DNA from: a bacterium
Lineage (GTDB): Bacteria > UBA10199 > 2-02-FULL-44-16 > JAAZCA01
Direction: 5' to 3'
NCBI GenBank assembly: GCA_963674695.2
Contig: CAXXGI010000001.1
Coordinates: 864,001-928,000 of the forward strand
DNA: 64,000 nt
The position numbers were made by a program, and so were the translations under genes. Under the pieces are notes generated by a model. It ran no database searches and was not told where the DNA came from. It was given only the letters and a program-made list of their open reading frames with translations. Of this stretch, positions 2,989 through 62,040 are shown one piece after another. How positions within the stretch are numbered: position 1 is the first letter of the stretch; the number at the start of each line of letters is the position of its first letter.

Positions 2989-3906
2989 TCAGATCATCGT
3001 GAGCCAGGAACGATGACGCTCGTTCTTGCCTCGTACGAGATCGAAGTAGGCATCCTGCAGTCGCTTGGTGATCGGTCCCGGCCTTCCTGCCCCGATGCAC
3101 CGATCGTCGATCTCCCGCACAGGAGTCACCTCAGCGGCCGTCCCGACGATGAAGACTTCATCGCAGAGATAGAGGTGATCGCGCGTAAACCGCTCTTCCC
3201 GCACCGGCAGATCCATCTCACGACAGAGGGTGATGATCGTATCGCGCGTGATCCCGGGCAGGATGGGGGAATAGGTCGGCGCGGTACGGATGACGCCATC
3301 GCGAACGGCAAAGAGGTTTTCACCGGAGCATTCGGCGACATACCCTTGCGTGTCGAGCATAATCGCTTCGTCGTAACCGCCAGCGATCGCCTCGCGCTTC
3401 GCCAGGGATGAGGGGACATACTGTCCGATAATCTTTCCCTGCACCATGCCGACGTTGACGTGATGACGGTTGAAGGATGAGACCTTCAGCCGCGTTCCCG
3501 ACTCGAGCGCTTCTTTGCCCAAATAGGCGCCCCACTTCCAGCAGGCAACGGCAACCCGGGTCGTATTGACCGCTGCCAACCCCATGGCGCCATCGCCACA
3601 AAACATGAGCGGGCGCAGGTAGCATTCGTCGAGCTCGTTGGCCCGAACGACTTCGACGCAGGCTTGCGCCACCTCCTCCTCGCTAAAGGCCGGCTCCATC
3701 TTTAAAATTTTGAGGCCATCGGACATCCGGCGCACATGTTCCTTGAGCCGAAAGATGGCCGACCCACCATCATGGAGACGATAGCACCGAATACCTTCAA
3801 AGACGCCAACGCCATAGTGCAGGGTATGGGTGAGGATGGGAACCTGCGCGTCGTTCCAATCGACAAACCTTCCATCCAACCAGACCTTCTTCGTCGGTTC
3901 GACCAT
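2989..3906 (-). CDS. ilvE: Branched-chain amino acid aminotransferase
   Basis: HTLHYGVGVFEGIRCY, YDEAIMLD, ECSGENLF, ILPGITR, GTAAEVTPVREID. Confidence 0.95.
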   Translation of the reverse strand: MVEPTKKVWLDGRFVDWNDAQVPILTHTLHYGVGVFEGIRCYRLHDGGSAIFRLKEHVRRMSDGLKILKMEPAFSEEEVAQACVEVVRANELDECYLRPLMFCGDGAMGLAAVNTTRVAVACWKWGAYLGKEALESGTRLKVSSFNRHHVNVGMVQGKIIGQYVPSSLAKREAIAGGYDEAIMLDTQGYVAECSGENLFAVRDGVIRTAPTYSPILPGITRDTIITLCREMDLPVREERFTRDHLYLCDEVFIVGTAAEVTPVREIDDRCIGAGRPGPITKRLQDAYFDLVRGKNERHRSWLTMI

Positions 3907-47898: not shown

Positions 47899-48114
47899 TG
47901 TCATCCCGAGTGACCCGGAGCGAACAGCGTGAGTCGAAGGGGAGTCGAGGGATCTCATGGGATCCCTCCACGCGCTCATTTCATTCACTTGGTCGGGATG
48001 ACAAGCATATGCCCAGCTCATTCACTTGGTCGGGATGACAAGCATATGCCCAGCTCATTCACTTGGTCGGGATGACAAGCGTATGCCCAGCTCATTCACT
48101 TGGTCGGGATGACA
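47899..48114. repeat. TGTCATCCCG-type palindromic REP (47899-48003) followed by a 37-bp tandem repeat
   Basis: Ends tgtcatcccga / tcgggatgaca. The unit tcattcacttggtcgggatgaca-agc(a/g)tatgcccagc starts at 47981, 48018, 48055 and (partial) 48092. Confidence 0.9.
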
Positions 48115-52316: not shown

Positions 52317-52564
52317 CTCTACATAATGTCTGTTGGAAAAGGGGGTTTTGTCGTCATTCCCGCGAAGGCGGGAATCTCGAAGCACTTGTAAATCGAGATT
52401 CCCGCCTTCGCGGGAATGACAAAAAACGGTGAAACCAGCATTTCCCGACAGACTCTACATAGTGCCTGTTGGGAAAAGGGTTTTGTCGTCATTCCCGCGA
52501 AGGCGGGAATCTCGAAGCACTTGTAAATCGAGATTCCCGCCTTCGCGGGAATGACAAAAAACGG
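52317..52564. repeat. Two identical GTCATTCCCGCG REP palindromes (52353-52420, 52488-52555) in a ~135-bp tandem duplication
   Basis: gtcattcccgcgaaggcgggaatctcga-agcacttgtaaa-tcgagattcccgccttcgcgggaatgac occurs twice with similar flanks. Confidence 0.92.
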
Positions 52565-57604: not shown

Positions 57605-59737
57605 TTGCCTTGTGTCATCAAAAAAATCGTCCCCGTCGCCTTGTTTTTTTTCTTCATGTCCTGCGGCACGGGCCCGGCGTTGGAAGAAAAAACGGGTAGC
57701 AATGCATCGGTGAACGTCGCCACCGGATCCGTCGATGTCGATATCAATTCAGGATTCACACTCGAGTTCAGCGTCGCCGCCAACACAGCAAGCGTTACGT
57801 CATCAACCTTCTTCGTCGTTCCGACAATCGTAGCGGACACATCTGCAGACATCGCCACGAAGGCCGCGATCAACACCAGCATCTGCGATCCGGCAAACGC
57901 CCTATCGGGCTCGATAACGCCCTCCACTCCGGGGAGCTGCGTCACCTCTTATTCATTGACCCCCGATTCCCCCCTTGGATATGAAACCGAGTACGCCCTC
58001 TGCGTGACCTCGGGAATTTCTTTCTGCAATCCAAATGTAAACGGCTTCTTTTCGGGGATGATGGAGACATTTACCACTGTTGCCGAGGGCGCAACCTACA
58101 CGGTCGGCGGAACGGTTACGGGTCTCAGCGGAACAGTCGTCTTACAAAATAACGCCGGTGATGACCTTACCCTGACAGGAGATGGAGCATTTACATTTTC
58201 AACCGCTATAACAGATGGCGCGGCCTATGACGCAACCGTAAAGACAAACCCGGACACACAAACCTGCACCGCATCGAACAACAGCGGGACGATCAGCGGC
58301 GCCAATGTCACAAATGTAACGGTAACATGCTCCACACATACATATACAGTTGGAGGCTCAGTCTCCGGACTTTCCGGAACCGTGGTGTTGCAAAATAACG
58401 CAACCGACGATTTGTCAGTCAACGCAAATGGCAGCTTCACCTTCCCGACCGAAGTCGCAGATGGATCTGGATACGCCGCAACTGTAAAAACAAATCCGAG
58501 TGAGCAGGCATGTGTTGTCGTGAATGATTCGGGAACTATCGATGGCGCCGATGTCACAAACGTTTCCGTAACGTGCACAACGAACACATATTCCATTGGT
58601 GGAACTCTCACGGGACTCGACACAGGCAGCGGCCTTGAAGTCGTCTTGCAGAACAACGGCGGTGACAATAAGACGCTCGATGCAAACGGTGCATTTACTT
58701 TTTCTGCGGAGCTAGAAGCCGGAGATGCGTATGCGGCAACCGTATCGACACAACCGGATGGTCAGGCCTGTCATGTGACGAATGGAGCAGGAACTATCAG
58801 CGGTGATGTTTCAAACGTAACCGTGTACTGCGCTTACTTTGCATATGTTGCAAATCGGACCGATGAAACAATTTCCGTAATAGATACAACGGACAACAGT
58901 GTCTACACCACCATAACGGATGGCTTGGGCTCTGGGCCATACGGCGTCGCTCTCACTTCTGATGGCAGCACTGCATATGTGACAAACAGGAGTGGCACAA
59001 CTGTCTCGGTCATCAGCACTGCTTCAAACACCGTAACCAACACCATATCTCGGGGAAGCGCTCCGCTCATTCAGCAGCCGATCGGTGTCGACATATCCCC
59101 TGATGACAACACGCTTTATTTTGCAAGCCACGACAATGACCTCTTATTTGTTTACGATATAAGCGGAAGTCCATCGTACACAACCGCCGTTTCCGTAGGC
59201 GACGGACCTGCAAACATTGCCGTTAATCCTATTGGCACCTATGTCTATGTGCCAACCTATGGCGCCAACATTTCAATCGTCGACACATCAGATAATACCG
59301 TGTCCAAGACACTCGCCGTTGGAACCAATCCTCACAACGCCTCCTTCTCTCCCAACGGAACTCATGCCTTTATTTCAAATAACGGAAGCAGCAATGTTTC
59401 TGTCGTAGAGACAGCTGGGCAAACGGTTGAAAGAACTGCCTCTGTTGGAGCCAATCCTCAAGGATCGGCAGTGACGCCTGACAGCGCCTTTGTCTATGTG
59501 ACAAATGCCGGACCCGGAAATCTCTCCCTTATCAATACATCCACATGGGCGGTTTCAACAATATCCGATGCCAGTTTTGATGGCCCAACTTTTGTGACAA
59601 TAGATAAGGATGGAGACTATGCGTATGTGAGCAACTCCGGCAGCAATACGGTGACTATAATAGATATGTCGGACAACAGCATTACCGGCACCATCACCGT
59701 TGGTAACGGGCCGGAAGGGATGGCTATCCAAAAATAA
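57605..59737 (+). CDS. Surface lipoprotein with an Ig-like domain, three Cys-containing repeats and a YVTN/YncE beta-propeller
   Basis: GGAGG RBS then TTG; lipobox FMSC; three Y(T/S)(V/I)GG..TGL..VVLQNN...V.V.C repeats; repeated AYVxN..TVSVI. Lower GC than the flanks. Confidence 0.85.
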   Translation: MPCVIKKIVPVALFFFFMSCGTGPALEEKTGSNASVNVATGSVDVDINSGFTLEFSVAANTASVTSSTFFVVPTIVADTSADIATKAAINTSICDPANALSGSITPSTPGSCVTSYSLTPDSPLGYETEYALCVTSGISFCNPNVNGFFSGMMETFTTVAEGATYTVGGTVTGLSGTVVLQNNAGDDLTLTGDGAFTFSTAITDGAAYDATVKTNPDTQTCTASNNSGTISGANVTNVTVTCSTHTYTVGGSVSGLSGTVVLQNNATDDLSVNANGSFTFPTEVADGSGYAATVKTNPSEQACVVVNDSGTIDGADVTNVSVTCTTNTYSIGGTLTGLDTGSGLEVVLQNNGGDNKTLDANGAFTFSAELEAGDAYAATVSTQPDGQACHVTNGAGTISGDVSNVTVYCAYFAYVANRTDETISVIDTTDNSVYTTITDGLGSGPYGVALTSDGSTAYVTNRSGTTVSVISTASNTVTNTISRGSAPLIQQPIGVDISPDDNTLYFASHDNDLLFVYDISGSPSYTTAVSVGDGPANIAVNPIGTYVYVPTYGANISIVDTSDNTVSKTLAVGTNPHNASFSPNGTHAFISNNGSSNVSVVETAGQTVERTASVGANPQGSAVTPDSAFVYVTNAGPGNLSLINTSTWAVSTISDASFDGPTFVTIDKDGDYAYVSNSGSNTVTIIDMSDNSITGTITVGNGPEGMAIQK

Positions 59738-59771
59738 AAAAACGAAGACTGAATTCGAATGTATAAAAAGG

Positions 59772-59810
59772 AAAAGGCCATAACCTGCTGTGGGTTATGG
59801 TCGTTTTTTT
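59772..59810. terminator. Terminator hairpin after the YVTN gene
   Basis: aaaaggccataacc-tgctgtg-ggttatggtc-gttttttt. Confidence 0.7.
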
Positions 59811-59976
59811 GCTCGGGTGGCCAGGCGCCGGCTCGCTTGCCCGCCGAAGCTTTAGCGAAGGAGGGCGCACGCACTCGCCGGCACTTCAGCATTATATGGC
59901 TTTGCATGCGCAAAGCCTCAAAGTATTGAAGGTCGTCGAACAGGAGCCTTACGGCTCCGTTCGAGTCAATTTCAAA

Positions 59977-60028
59977 GGAGCCAAAAGAAACGGGGAAGGC
60001 AATTGCCTTCCCCGTTTCTTTTGGCTCC
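59977..60028. repeat. Perfect 52-bp palindrome overlapping the tRNA 3' end (likely terminator)
   Basis: ggagccaaaagaaacggggaaggcaa|ttgccttccccgtttcttttggctcc. Confidence 0.85.
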
Positions 60029-60417
60029 GGTGGCCAGACTCGAACTGGCGACCCGCTGATTACATGTGTTCCACTCGTTTCCGAGCGGCATGGACTATCT
60101 CATCACCATATCCACATTCGGACTGTAGGTGGCGGGCGCTTGTGGGGGATTATTCTTTCGTCACCCCCTAGTCTCTGCACCTTCCCCCCGCCTTTGACAT
60201 CGGGAGGCTTGGCTCAGGGTTACCCGCCGCTTCGCGGAAATCCAAATCTCAAATGACTAAATCCTCAATGAAACATTCGGATCCAGGATTTGGAATTTAG
60301 GATTTCCCGACGAAGTCGGGGAGGGATTCCCTGAATTCACCCGCTTTTCACCCTGCCGTTTCCGACAGGGGCTGCCTTGTGACAGTCAGCTGCTCTAACC
60401 AACTGAGCTACACCGGA
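60022..60417 (-). tRNA. tRNA-Asn(GTT), split: exon 1 60417-60382, exon 2 60062-60022
   Basis: Joined exons give a 77-nt cloverleaf: acceptor TCCGGTG/CACCGGA, D arm GCTC/GAGC, anticodon arm GCTGA-CTGT|TAA-TCAGC, T arm GCCAG-TTCGAGT-CTGGC, G73 and encoded CCA. Confidence 0.93.
60063..60381 (-). ncRNA. Group I intron (319 nt, no ORF) in the tRNA-Asn anticodon
   Basis: P1 CUGU/GCAG with a U.G pair at the 5' splice site; terminal G. Core elements P GAATTCAGGGAA, Q AACCCTGAGCCAAG, R GTGCAGAGACTAG, S GAGATAGTCC. P3 GCGGGTG/CGCCCGC, P7 GACTA/TAGTC, GAAA-capped P2 and P9. Confidence 0.92.
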
Positions 60418-60466
60418 ATATTACACCTTTCAAAGAGCGCGAAAAATCGCGCATGCCTAACACCAA

Positions 60467-61057
60467 TCATTCGGCGTGTAAACCCCGTTTCGCATGGTTC
60501 TCGGCGTGCTGGCCCCGGCGCAGGATCGGCGCATAGACGCGAAAATAGGCGATCTCCGCAGTGAGCATGCCGGCCAGAATGAGGCCGGGGAGGGTAAGCG
60601 ACTCCATCCGGCCATCCCAGCGGCTCGCGGCGAAGATGGCTGCGGAGCTGCAGACCAGCCCCAGCTCGACGGCGAAGGCCCAGTGATGGCCGCGATGCAG
60701 ATCCCGTTCATGCAGGCCCACGCCCGGAATCCAACCGCCCCAGGGCGTGACATGCATCCGGCGGCGATTGATGAGATCAAAGACCCAGTGCGACAGCACG
60801 CAGCCGCCATAGATGAGCGCATCGACGGCATTCGCGCCGAAGATCAACGCCGCCGCGACCGTCGCCACGGTCAGCAGTGCGACCGCCAGGAGGGTGTGCG
60901 AAAAGCGCTCGTCGGCGCCCAGGCGCTCAAGCCCCAGAAGGACGAGGAGCGCGTGCACCAGATCCACGAGTAGACACAGCCCCATCGCCAGCGGCAGATT
61001 CACTTCCGGCCGGAGGGCCTTGGCCACGAGTGCGGGGGCGAGATGGGCGACGAGCAT
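60467..61057 (-). CDS. Membrane-bound metal-dependent hydrolase-like (YdjM-like) protein
   Basis: M..AH, LVDL, FSHTLL and LSHWVFD motifs within TM helices. Confidence 0.7.
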   Translation of the reverse strand: MLVAHLAPALVAKALRPEVNLPLAMGLCLLVDLVHALLVLLGLERLGADERFSHTLLAVALLTVATVAAALIFGANAVDALIYGGCVLSHWVFDLINRRRMHVTPWGGWIPGVGLHERDLHRGHHWAFAVELGLVCSSAAIFAASRWDGRMESLTLPGLILAGMLTAEIAYFRVYAPILRRGQHAENHAKRGLHAE

Positions 61058-61146
61058 GTCGACATCGTGCCCGCTTTTTCCGCCCATCGCAACCCCGCCC
61101 CGTTTTTCCTTGCCCGCCCGGCCCGGCGGGTCTATGTGGAGCGCCT

Positions 61147-62040
61147 ATGGCAATGGTCGACCACAGACGCCTTTCCAACGAAGAACTCATCGACCTCCTC
61201 TTCAACCAGGAGGATCGGCTCCCGCGCGCCGCGGTTGATGAGATCCTGCGCCGCGAGTCCGAAATGTTGCCGATCTTGAGTGAGATCGCCATGGACCGCA
61301 CCGTCTGGATCGCCGACACCCCCGAGTGGTGGGCGCCGGTGCATGCCACCTATATCCTCGGCGCCATCGGCGGCCCCGAGGTCCTCGTCCCACTGCTTGC
61401 CGCGCTGCGCTGGTCGGACGCCTACGACAACGAATGGGCCGCTGAAGACCTCCCCTCCATCCTCGGCTCGATGGGGGAGATCTCCCGCCCGGCCATTCTC
61501 GGCTGCATCGCCGATCGCAGCGCCGGCTGGTCCGCACGCTCCATCGCGATGGACGCCCTGGGCTCACAGGCGATGCGCACCCCCGACACGGAAGAGGAGT
61601 CAATGGGACTGCTCGGGGCAATCCTGCGGGATGAAAGCGAAGAATACGGCGCACGTCGGAGCGCAGCCTACATCCTGCTCGACTTCCGGCGCACCGATTT
61701 CAAGAAGGAACTCATTGCGATTGCCTGGGAGGAGGATCGGCGCCAGCAGCAACTCCCCGACTATCGCGTCGCCTTCACCCCCGACCAGATCGAGAGCGAG
61801 CTCACCCTCCCGCGCCGCGGCATGGACGTCTATCTGCGCGATTGGCTCACCTTCTATGACGCCGATGAGATCACGCGGCGACAGTCGCGTTGGACGGAAC
61901 AGGACAGCCGCCGACGCATGGAGGTCGACGAAGAGCTGGCCCCGCATTCGCGTCAAAGCTTCGTCATCTCGCCCAGCGATCCCTGCCCCTGCGGCAGCGG
62001 AAAACCCTATCGACGCTGCTGTTTCAAGAAGCTGCATTGA
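61147..62040 (+). CDS. DUF1186-like helical protein with C-terminal SEC-C motif
   Basis: WAPVHATYILG, HEAT-like repeats, terminal DPCPCGSGKPYRRCC. Confidence 0.8.
   Translation: MAMVDHRRLSNEELIDLLFNQEDRLPRAAVDEILRRESEMLPILSEIAMDRTVWIADTPEWWAPVHATYILGAIGGPEVLVPLLAALRWSDAYDNEWAAEDLPSILGSMGEISRPAILGCIADRSAGWSARSIAMDALGSQAMRTPDTEEESMGLLGAILRDESEEYGARRSAAYILLDFRRTDFKKELIAIAWEEDRRQQQLPDYRVAFTPDQIESELTLPRRGMDVYLRDWLTFYDADEITRRQSRWTEQDSRRRMEVDEELAPHSRQSFVISPSDPCPCGSGKPYRRCCFKKLH

Follow-up and report, generated by a model that had tools for sequence, protein, structure and literature searches.

The 64-kb window analysed here, a stretch of 64,000 nucleotides (nt) from contig CAXXGI010000001.1 of the bacterial genome assembly GCA_963674695.2, contains a gene for tRNA-Asn(GUU) that is split within its anticodon by a group I intron. 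Window coordinates refer to this 64-kb stretch throughout, and the gene is read on its minus strand. Direct reading places the gene, including an encoded CCA end, at 60417-60022, with the intron between anticodon bases 35 and 36. With high confidence, we take it to be the sole tRNA-Asn(GUU) gene of its genome, carrying a group I intron that has lost its open reading frame (ORF), appears to have been inherited mostly vertically, and has gained an insert of heptamer repeats in its peripheral helix P5. The gene is made up of three parts.

60382-60417, minus strand: tRNA-Asn 5′ exon, tRNA positions 1 to 35, read directly; it ends in CUGU, and U35 is U(-1), the last exon base
60063-60381, minus strand: group I intron, 319 nt, ORF-less, matched by Rfam family RF00028; its last base, G60063, is omega-G
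60022-60062, minus strand: tRNA-Asn 3′ exon, from U36 onward, read directly; it starts UAAUCAGC and ends GCCA, with the encoded CCA at 60024-60022

The 5′ exon starts at the acceptor stem and takes in the D arm and the first (5′) half of the anticodon stem; the 3′ exon contributes the variable loop, the T arm, the 3′ strand of the acceptor, the discriminator G and the encoded CCA. By direct reading, all seven acceptor-stem pairs and all five anticodon-stem pairs form. The position of the intron was defined by the logic of Williams 2020 (bioRxiv, doi 10.1101/2020.01.27.920355), with eight in silico mature sequences, one for each possible intron position round the 7-nt anticodon loop. Site 4 alone among the eight combines U(-1) with G(omega), and site 4 alone restores the loop CUGUUAA and is called tRNA-Asn(gtt) by ARAGORN; the other seven yield Thr or Asp anticodons. 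The in silico spliced product matches the uninterrupted tRNA-Asn of a genome from the same family (G002, locus L020) at 75 of 77 positions. The gene is a tRNA-Asn(GUU) split at 35/36 by a group I intron.

An earlier, sequence-only reading of this DNA had proposed a split tRNA-Asn(GUU) with a 319-nt gap, and every one of its coordinates is borne out, the spliced exons giving Asn(gtt) in ARAGORN. The group I rules that it had invoked are obeyed as well: there is a U·G pair in P1, the last intron base is G, and in silico the junction that it had predicted, CTGT|TAATC, is the only one of the eight that fits U(-1)/G(omega). It had further expected standard tRNA finders to miss the gene. Default ARAGORN is indeed silent, with zero tRNA calls in the entire 64-kb window, while the intron-aware mode, run on the genome, recovers the exact gene bounds and a 319-nt intron (C1:924022-924417), sets the intron one base off and misnames the gene Thr(ggt). 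Brute-force joining of the exons with default ARAGORN named Asp for many joins; the program tolerates leftover intron, so this result is uninformative.

No second gene for this tRNA has come to light. Over the three contigs, ARAGORN reports 43 tRNA genes and a transfer-messenger RNA (tmRNA); 19 amino acids are covered, and none of the genes is for Asn. Nor did intron-mode ARAGORN make an Asn call on the genome; the remaining introns that it reports are in tRNAs with different anticodons, and several of these calls, which span neighbouring default tRNA calls, look like artefacts. A 396-nt query comprising exons and intron has a single match in the genome, which amounts to 3.03 Mb in three contigs (not closed), has a GC content of 58-59%, and is scored 100% complete with 0.85% contamination. 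The sequence-only reading had made the need for splicing depend on the absence of another tRNA-Asn gene, and in this genome neither default nor intron-aware ARAGORN finds one. On this gene content, splicing of the intron would be essential for the decoding of AAC and AAU codons.

The assignment of the intron to group I is supported by a covariance model. Rfam RF00028 (Intron_gpI) matches it over model positions 1-253 of 253, with 71.4 bits against a gathering cut-off of 50 (E 4e-16), in agreement with the class proposed earlier. This is the only gathering-level Rfam match in the window, and the only Intron_gpI match at that level in the whole genome. The conserved elements that had been marked from the letters, P (60338-60327), Q (60221-60208), R (60180-60168) and S (60101-60092), correspond to J3/4+P4, P4′+P6, J6/7+P7 and J8/7+P7′, respectively, where P denotes paired and J joining regions.

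The fold was examined in a structure alignment of 20 ORF-less copies, namely the window copy, 11 from relatives and eight from named genomes. These are 20 of 29 ORF-less copies shorter than 350 nt; four near-identical cyanobacterial copies and five with larger peripheral inserts were excluded before counting. Without any given structure, RNAalifold recovers the anticodon stem, P1-P6, P8, P9, and P9.0 beside omega-G, with 46 of 58 pairs compensatory. The full topology of 70 pairs adds the P7 pseudoknot, two further pairs in P3 and an extra hairpin that lies between P7 and P3′. Its elements are as follows.

60372-60385, minus strand: P1, with the U60382·G60375 wobble at the 5′ splice site; CUGU plus the intron C (60385-60381) pairs with GGCAG (60376-60372) around a 4-nt loop, ACAA
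60351-60370, minus strand: P2, 8 base pairs (bp) with a GAAA tetraloop; compensatory changes in all eight pairs
60338-60344, minus strand: P3, 5′ strand (partner 60138-60132); 7 bp, 96.3% of cells paired, three pairs with double changes
60329-60334, minus strand: P4, 5′ strand (partner 60219-60214); 99.2% paired, five of six pairs with double changes
60223-60325, minus strand: P5 and its long coaxial extension, from the folding of 60325-60220; the proximal P5 pairs covary
60179-60213, minus strand: P6/P6a hairpin; nine pairs, double changes in all
60169-60175, minus strand: P7, 5′ strand G(A)GACUA (partner 60097-60092, UAGUCC), the pseudoknot helix; five of six pairs invariant in 20/20 copies, 99.2% paired
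60144-60168, minus strand: extra hairpin in J7/3, between the P7 5′ strand and the P3 3′ strand; four of five pairs covary
60104-60131, minus strand: P8; four closing pairs, three with double changes
60064-60091, minus strand: P9.0 (60091-60090 with 60065-60064) and P9 (60088-60071, GAAA loop); both P9.0 pairs covary, and six of seven P9 pairs show double changes

Over the 20 copies, 94.3% of cells are paired in this structure, as against 34.6-42.6% when the 3′ partners are slid by one to three columns. Changes on both sides are seen in 51 of the 70 pairs, and on each of five measures all 500 shuffles fall short of the observed value. The splice-site U·G and omega-G are each present in 20/20 copies, and the fifth pair of P1 covaries, with eight double changes. 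P7, which we take to be the guanosine-binding helix, is nearly invariant, and its covariation thus speaks neither for nor against the structure. The J7/3 hairpin has gaps at all five pairs in four of the 20 copies (G052, L029, L077 and L024). In the window copy, 67 of 70 pairs form, and the common residue is kept at all 45 invariant alignment columns. Features that bear on the subgroup are the GNRA loops that close P2 and P9, the simple P5 of the relatives, and a core close to that of the relatives' tRNA-Leu intron. Introns of subgroup IC3 lack P2.1 and P5abc, and their GNRA loops L2 and L9 have receptors in P8 and P5.

Of the 93 genomes of the host's class, 17 (the window genome and 16 others) have this kind of tRNA-Asn intron at an identical junction. 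At E ≤1e-15 the count is 16 of 93, window included, spread over 10 of 24 families; a weaker 17th genome (G052) adds an 11th family. In the window's own family (f1), the intron is found in five of 13 genomes, and three (G002, G005 and G009) possess contiguous, intron-less exons. One family member, G012, has two intron-containing tRNA-Asn copies, on contigs C96 and C86; it is scored at 5% contamination and may be a mixed bin. A pattern search of 185,579 species genomes gave at least 119 stretches, of which a strict split-tRNA-Asn parser passes 24, so that at least 24 named genomes carry the arrangement. Their record labels are Cyanobacteria (6), Saccharibacteria/Saccharimonadales (4), Parcubacteria/Paceibacterota (3), Omnitrophota (2), Nitrospira/Nitrospiraceae (2) and Pacearchaeota (2), and one each of Portnoybacteria, Elusimicrobia, a gammaproteobacterial metagenome-assembled genome (MAG), a deltaproteobacterial MAG and an unclassified bacterium.

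The two records labelled Candidatus Pacearchaeota archaeon (L039 and L063) have a split tRNA-Asn with a G1-C72 acceptor end and the same intron at the same site. Mis-binning has been suspected for one Pacearchaeota-type bin in the text of Williams 2020 (doi 10.1101/2020.01.27.920355).

This distribution corrects two points of the sequence-only reading, which had given introns at this site as noted mainly in Patescibacteria and had taken the present copy to extend the site to a deltaproteobacteria-like host. The site is occupied far beyond Patescibacteria, both in the host's class and under the cyanobacterial, Nitrospira, Omnitrophota, Elusimicrobia, gamma- and 'delta'-proteobacterial and Pacearchaeota labels; and, with 16 class relatives and at least 24 named genomes already holding it, there was no extension left to make. 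As judged from these genome sequences, public genomes from many phyla already contain introns of this type, and the window copy extends no host range.

Together, the 17 class copies (window included) and the 24 named copies among the matches listed form a set of 41, some of which encode a nuclease. An intact ORF that starts in the P1 loop is present in 10 of the 41, four from the class (L007, L012, L014 and L015) and six from named genomes (L054, L071, L081, L106, L119 and L122); in the eight copies where the intron ORF could be delimited, its length is 101-173 amino acids. Remnants also occur: L063 has a truncated ORF, and a stub in L011 is read as an ORF remnant. All five of the ORFs tested match phrog_2255, 'HNH endonuclease', with E 8e-26 to 1.6e-30. 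The Pfam HNH model (PF01844) scores 17.6-19.2 bits on the relatives' ORFs against a cut-off of 21.4, and hence falls below it in all four tested. In several mobile copies, the translations indicate that the 3′ end of the HNH ORF is translated from the P1′-P2-P3-P4 sequence of the ribozyme, so that coding and catalytic sequence overlap.

In the window copy, by contrast with these mobile relatives, the P1 loop measures just 4 nt, and the intron contains no ORF of 30 or more amino acids on the sense strand. The one sense-strand ORF listed there (39 amino acids, 59972-60091) clips only the 3′ end of the intron and spans the 3′ exon and the hairpin that begins at the CCA. Two antisense ORFs of 124 and 61 amino acids have no Pfam match. 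When eight of the relatives' intron ORFs were searched against the window genome with tblastn, no homologue was found (best E 0.10). The sequence-only reading had likewise noted that the intron has no homing endonuclease ORF.

An intron tree (FastTree, 234 core columns, 41 copies) groups the window copy with family f1 and its order-mates f2 (support 0.74-0.90), then with f8 (0.95), and then with f3 and f4 (0.82). The core identity of the window copy falls in the same order, from 82-78% to f1 through 76% to f2 to 76-73% to f3, f4 and f8, and the copies nearest to it are all ORF-less. G052 represents a distinct intron lineage, which groups with the Pacearchaeota-labelled copies at a weak support of 0.58. 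These relationships are suggestive of an intron long resident by vertical descent, with loss of the ORF and several losses of the intron itself. The window copy would descend from a family of HNH-carrying mobile introns that target the same site; its nuclease gene would have been lost, leaving the 4-nt P1 loop, and its inheritance would have been mostly vertical within the host's order.

The most serious competitor to vertical residence is that the window copy arrived recently, by horizontal homing, and lost its ORF afterwards. The patchy spread of the intron would fit such an arrival, with 17 of 93 class genomes and five of 13 in family f1 occupied and G002, G005 and G009 intron-less, as would the ORF-bearing copies within the class and the grouping of the G052 lineage with Pacearchaeota-labelled copies (0.58). 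Against this, the window copy nests within its own family and order, core identity falls stepwise, and its nearest copies are ORF-less. A recent arrival is thus unlikely, although it retains an appreciable chance, and mostly vertical inheritance is preferred.

The feature that sets the window copy apart from its relatives lies at the tip of P5.

60235-60307, minus strand: window-specific insert at the P5 tip, 73 nt, 37% GC, with inverted arms of AAATCCT-type heptamers

The insert region (query positions 107-193) has no match in any of the other 92 genomes of the class. The 5′ arm reads AAATCCT AAATTCC AAATCCT, and the 3′ arm contains the reverse-complement words. The period-7 scores of the two arms, 0.61 and 0.54, are reached by 0 and 18 of 5000 shuffles, respectively. 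For the 106-nt stretch 60325-60220 the folding energy is -43.3 kcal/mol (z -4.4; none of 200 shuffles as good), the insert continuing P5, whose tip is the most length-variable part of the 20-copy alignment. It is proposed that the insert is tolerated because it is a coaxial extension of a peripheral helix.

Many period-7 arrays are reported by Tandem Repeats Finder (TRF) in the 64-kb window, and the same family of heptamer words recurs at two other loci of the genome. One is inside the 23S rRNA gene, which measures 3178 nt as against the 2925 positions of the model. It contains a 146-nt AT-rich hairpin of inverted AAATCCT/AGGATTT-type heptamers (G000:C3:922010-922175, minus strand; L141 about 3011-3176), which sits in the loop of a hairpin near position 1218 of RF02541, presumably the classical helix-45 site of intervening sequences. 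A second AT-rich stretch in the same gene occupies rRNA nt 261-380. The 146-nt insertion looks like an intervening sequence. The other locus is an intergenic block of inverted AAAATCC/GGATTT words at about C3 244080-244170 (L142 780-870), upstream of an ORF whose N-terminus resembles that of purE. A string of 18 nt is common to this block and the 3′ arm of the 23S insertion, and Rfam reports no RNA family at the block.

We read the P5 insert as a probable member of this heptamer repeat population, which would survive where a helix tip can lengthen harmlessly. In the proposed history, the P5 tip would in addition have gained the 73-nt hairpin of inverted AAATCCT-type arrays, from a repeat type that populates the genome. 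A broader idea, which we consider doubtful, is that such hairpins colonise the helix tips of structured RNAs, here P5 of a catalytic intron and a 23S hairpin loop, and not only the spacers between genes. Were it true, the P5 extension would be an 'intervening sequence inside a ribozyme', and the process that generates the repeats would either target hairpin tips of DNA or RNA, or leave survivors only there.

An origin of the insert as a miniature inverted-repeat transposable element (MITE) or another multi-copy element was considered and rejected: BLAST gives no second long copy in the genome, the best other match being 20 nt long (E 0.03). The window also contains larger repeats, tandem or inverted, that are unrelated to the intron, at 2598-2794 (18/54-nt period), 47981-48114 (37-nt × 3.6) and 52317-52564 (135-nt × 1.8, with a long palindrome inside it).

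The two-step reaction with an external guanosine is the standard chemistry of group I introns, and a corresponding course can be proposed for this one. The precursor tRNA would fold into P1-P9, including the P3/P7 pseudoknot. An external guanosine would attack after U35, held in the U·G wobble of P1 (CUGUC/GGCAG). The freed 3′-OH of U35 would then attack after omega-G60063, the exons would join as CUGU|UAAUC, and the 7-nt loop CUGUUAA would be restored.

This scheme may be complicated by a dependence on protein. Some group I introns need protein cofactors, and it is conceivable that this intron is spliced only when assisted by a protein of the host (for instance a chaperone for RNA, or a synthetase-type cofactor), notably to fold the enlarged P5. 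The existence of such protein-dependent group I introns and the unusual P5 extension are both consistent with such a need; the compact core, the conserved GNRA loops in P2 and P9 and the fully covarying core argue the other way, and no candidate gene is linked, matches in the flanking ORFs being only to beta-propeller and SEC-C motifs. We regard a required cofactor as improbable, and favour splicing by the intron RNA as laid out above.

Several observations weigh against the reading as a whole. The three sequence sets that cover window positions 59000-61500 are contig sets of one study, and none is RNA; their contigs bridge the intron and the P5 insert with no join that skips either, which speaks to presence only, and they are possibly the source of the assembly itself. 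A promoter scan did not find a sigma-70-like promoter upstream of the gene. The three unpaired cells of the window row all belong to distal P5, a part whose alignment is upset by the insert. P5 makes a tertiary contact in related introns, and a 73-nt insert unique to the window copy may affect folding or this contact. TRF at score ≥30 calls no tandem repeat in the insert and BLAST finds no long second copy of it, so that the proposed heptamer-array origin rests on the periodicity and the shared word. Finally, the tree was built on 234 columns only, with FastTree local supports of 0.74-0.95; vertical residence is therefore no more than suggested by it.

Some of these points would also suit a less favourable view, in which the intron is a decaying, splicing-dead relic (damaged, for example, by the P5 insert), the gene is a pseudogene, and tRNA-Asn comes from another gene that was missed in assembly or recognition. 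The intron has lost its nuclease ORF, P5 contains 73 nt of foreign hairpin, the assembly of three contigs is not closed, and the sequence sets at the locus contain no RNA. Against this view, all 45 invariant columns are kept and 67 of 70 pairs form; the exons are 75/77 identical to the intact gene of a relative; both modes of ARAGORN and the single query match reveal no other Asn gene in a genome scored 100% complete; and no region of the alignment varies more in length than the P5 tip, which means that other copies tolerate insertions there. We judge a dead relic very improbable and retain a presumably working intron in a gene that would be essential. That the gene instead encodes tRNA-Asp(GUC) or tRNA-Thr(GGU/UGU) and has its intron at a different place in the loop is practically out of the question: ARAGORN does name Asp or Thr at seven of eight junctions, and Thr(ggt) in intron mode on the genome, but none of those seven junctions combines U(-1) with G(omega), P1 (CUGU/GCAG) places U·G at U35 in 20/20 copies, the exons match an uninterrupted tRNA-Asn gene, and Asp(gtc), Thr(ggt) and Thr(tgt) are each provided for by another gene of the genome.

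A further structured element begins at the 3′ end of the gene.

59981-60024, minus strand: perfect 20-bp hairpin that begins at the CCA, terminator-like; -37.3 kcal/mol, z -8.1

A consensus terminator scan did not call this hairpin, probably because its T-run lies inside the stem. As the hairpin starts at the encoded CCA, the 3′ end of the tRNA is sequestered in the primary transcript. Its symmetry, with an A-run as well as a T-run, is such that it could terminate transcription in both directions. The flanking ORFs have only the beta-propeller and SEC-C motif matches already mentioned, and no candidate gene for a splicing cofactor is linked.

For genome annotation, the consequence is that default tRNA finders report a genome scored as complete to be without tRNA-Asn, and that intron-aware ARAGORN misnames the gene. 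Inferences on genome quality or codon capacity in this lineage would be wrong without intron-aware mapping. The gene also offers what would be a clean natural case of an essential tRNA that depends wholly on ribozyme splicing, and of a nuclease-less intron that persists through a bacterial order. The P5 insert and its 23S counterpart are a small observation, which suggests that heptamer repeats can settle in structured RNAs.

Introns of this general kind have been surveyed before. The text of Williams 2020 (bioRxiv, doi 10.1101/2020.01.27.920355) reports that 5292 bacterial tRNA genes are split by group I introns, and increases the known types from four (Leu.3Ug, Arg.5Ug, fMet.2Ug and Ile2.5Ug, all IC3) to 21. 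In the nomenclature set out there, the window intron would be 'Asn.4Ug' (site 4, U(-1)/G(omega)). The running text of the preprint does not contain the word 'Asn'; its type list is in Table 1 and Fig. 3. In the searchable literature text, supplements lying outside the search, no bacterial tRNA-Asn group I intron is named, and a full-text search for 'Asn.4Ug' gave no match.

The closest comparison is with the other tRNA-Asn introns at site 4. The gene, the insertion CUGU|...G|UAA, the U(-1)/G(omega) pair of residues and the conserved core are the same, and the junction recurs in the 40 other copies; the window copy differs in having no ORF, whereas some relatives have an HNH ORF in P1, and in its unique 73-nt P5 hairpin. 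On this sequence comparison the window intron is of a known, common kind, and its unusual feature is the heptamer hairpin at the P5 tip.

With the classical bacterial and plastid tRNA introns, those of Leu(UAA) at 34/35, fMet, Ile2(CAU) and Arg(CCU), it shares a length of about 230-320 nt, a place in the anticodon loop, a P1 formed from loop bases, a P2 and a P9 that are capped by GNRA loops, and R and S elements that are nearly identical. It differs from them in its tRNA (Asn), its loop position (35/36), the hairpin between P7 and P3′, and the P5 insert. The relatives' tRNA-Leu(UAA) intron has a core 72-76% identical to that of the Asn intron over about 109 nt, and a similar J7/3 hairpin; the tRNA-Leu(taa) gene of the window genome itself is uninterrupted. 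By direct reading, the tRNA-Leu introns in L018 (G005:C43; 1105-1376) and L021 (G033:C1; 1366-1603) have the junction CU|c...g|UAAAA. It lies at 33/34, upstream by one base of CUU|AAAA, the classical site given in the text of Williams 2020. Intron matches confined to the core were seen in G010, G001, G045 and G031.

A third comparison, with the intervening sequences at hairpin tips of bacterial 23S rRNA and with heptamer arrays like those of the short tandemly repeated repetitive (STRR) type, concerns the insert. It and the 146-nt 23S insertion of the same genome are each an AT-rich hairpin of inverted AAATCCT/AGGATTT-type heptamers at the helix tip of a structured RNA. The 23S intervening sequences are cut out by RNase III, and they differ from the P5 insert in their host RNA, which in the present case is a ribozyme intron that is itself discarded after splicing.

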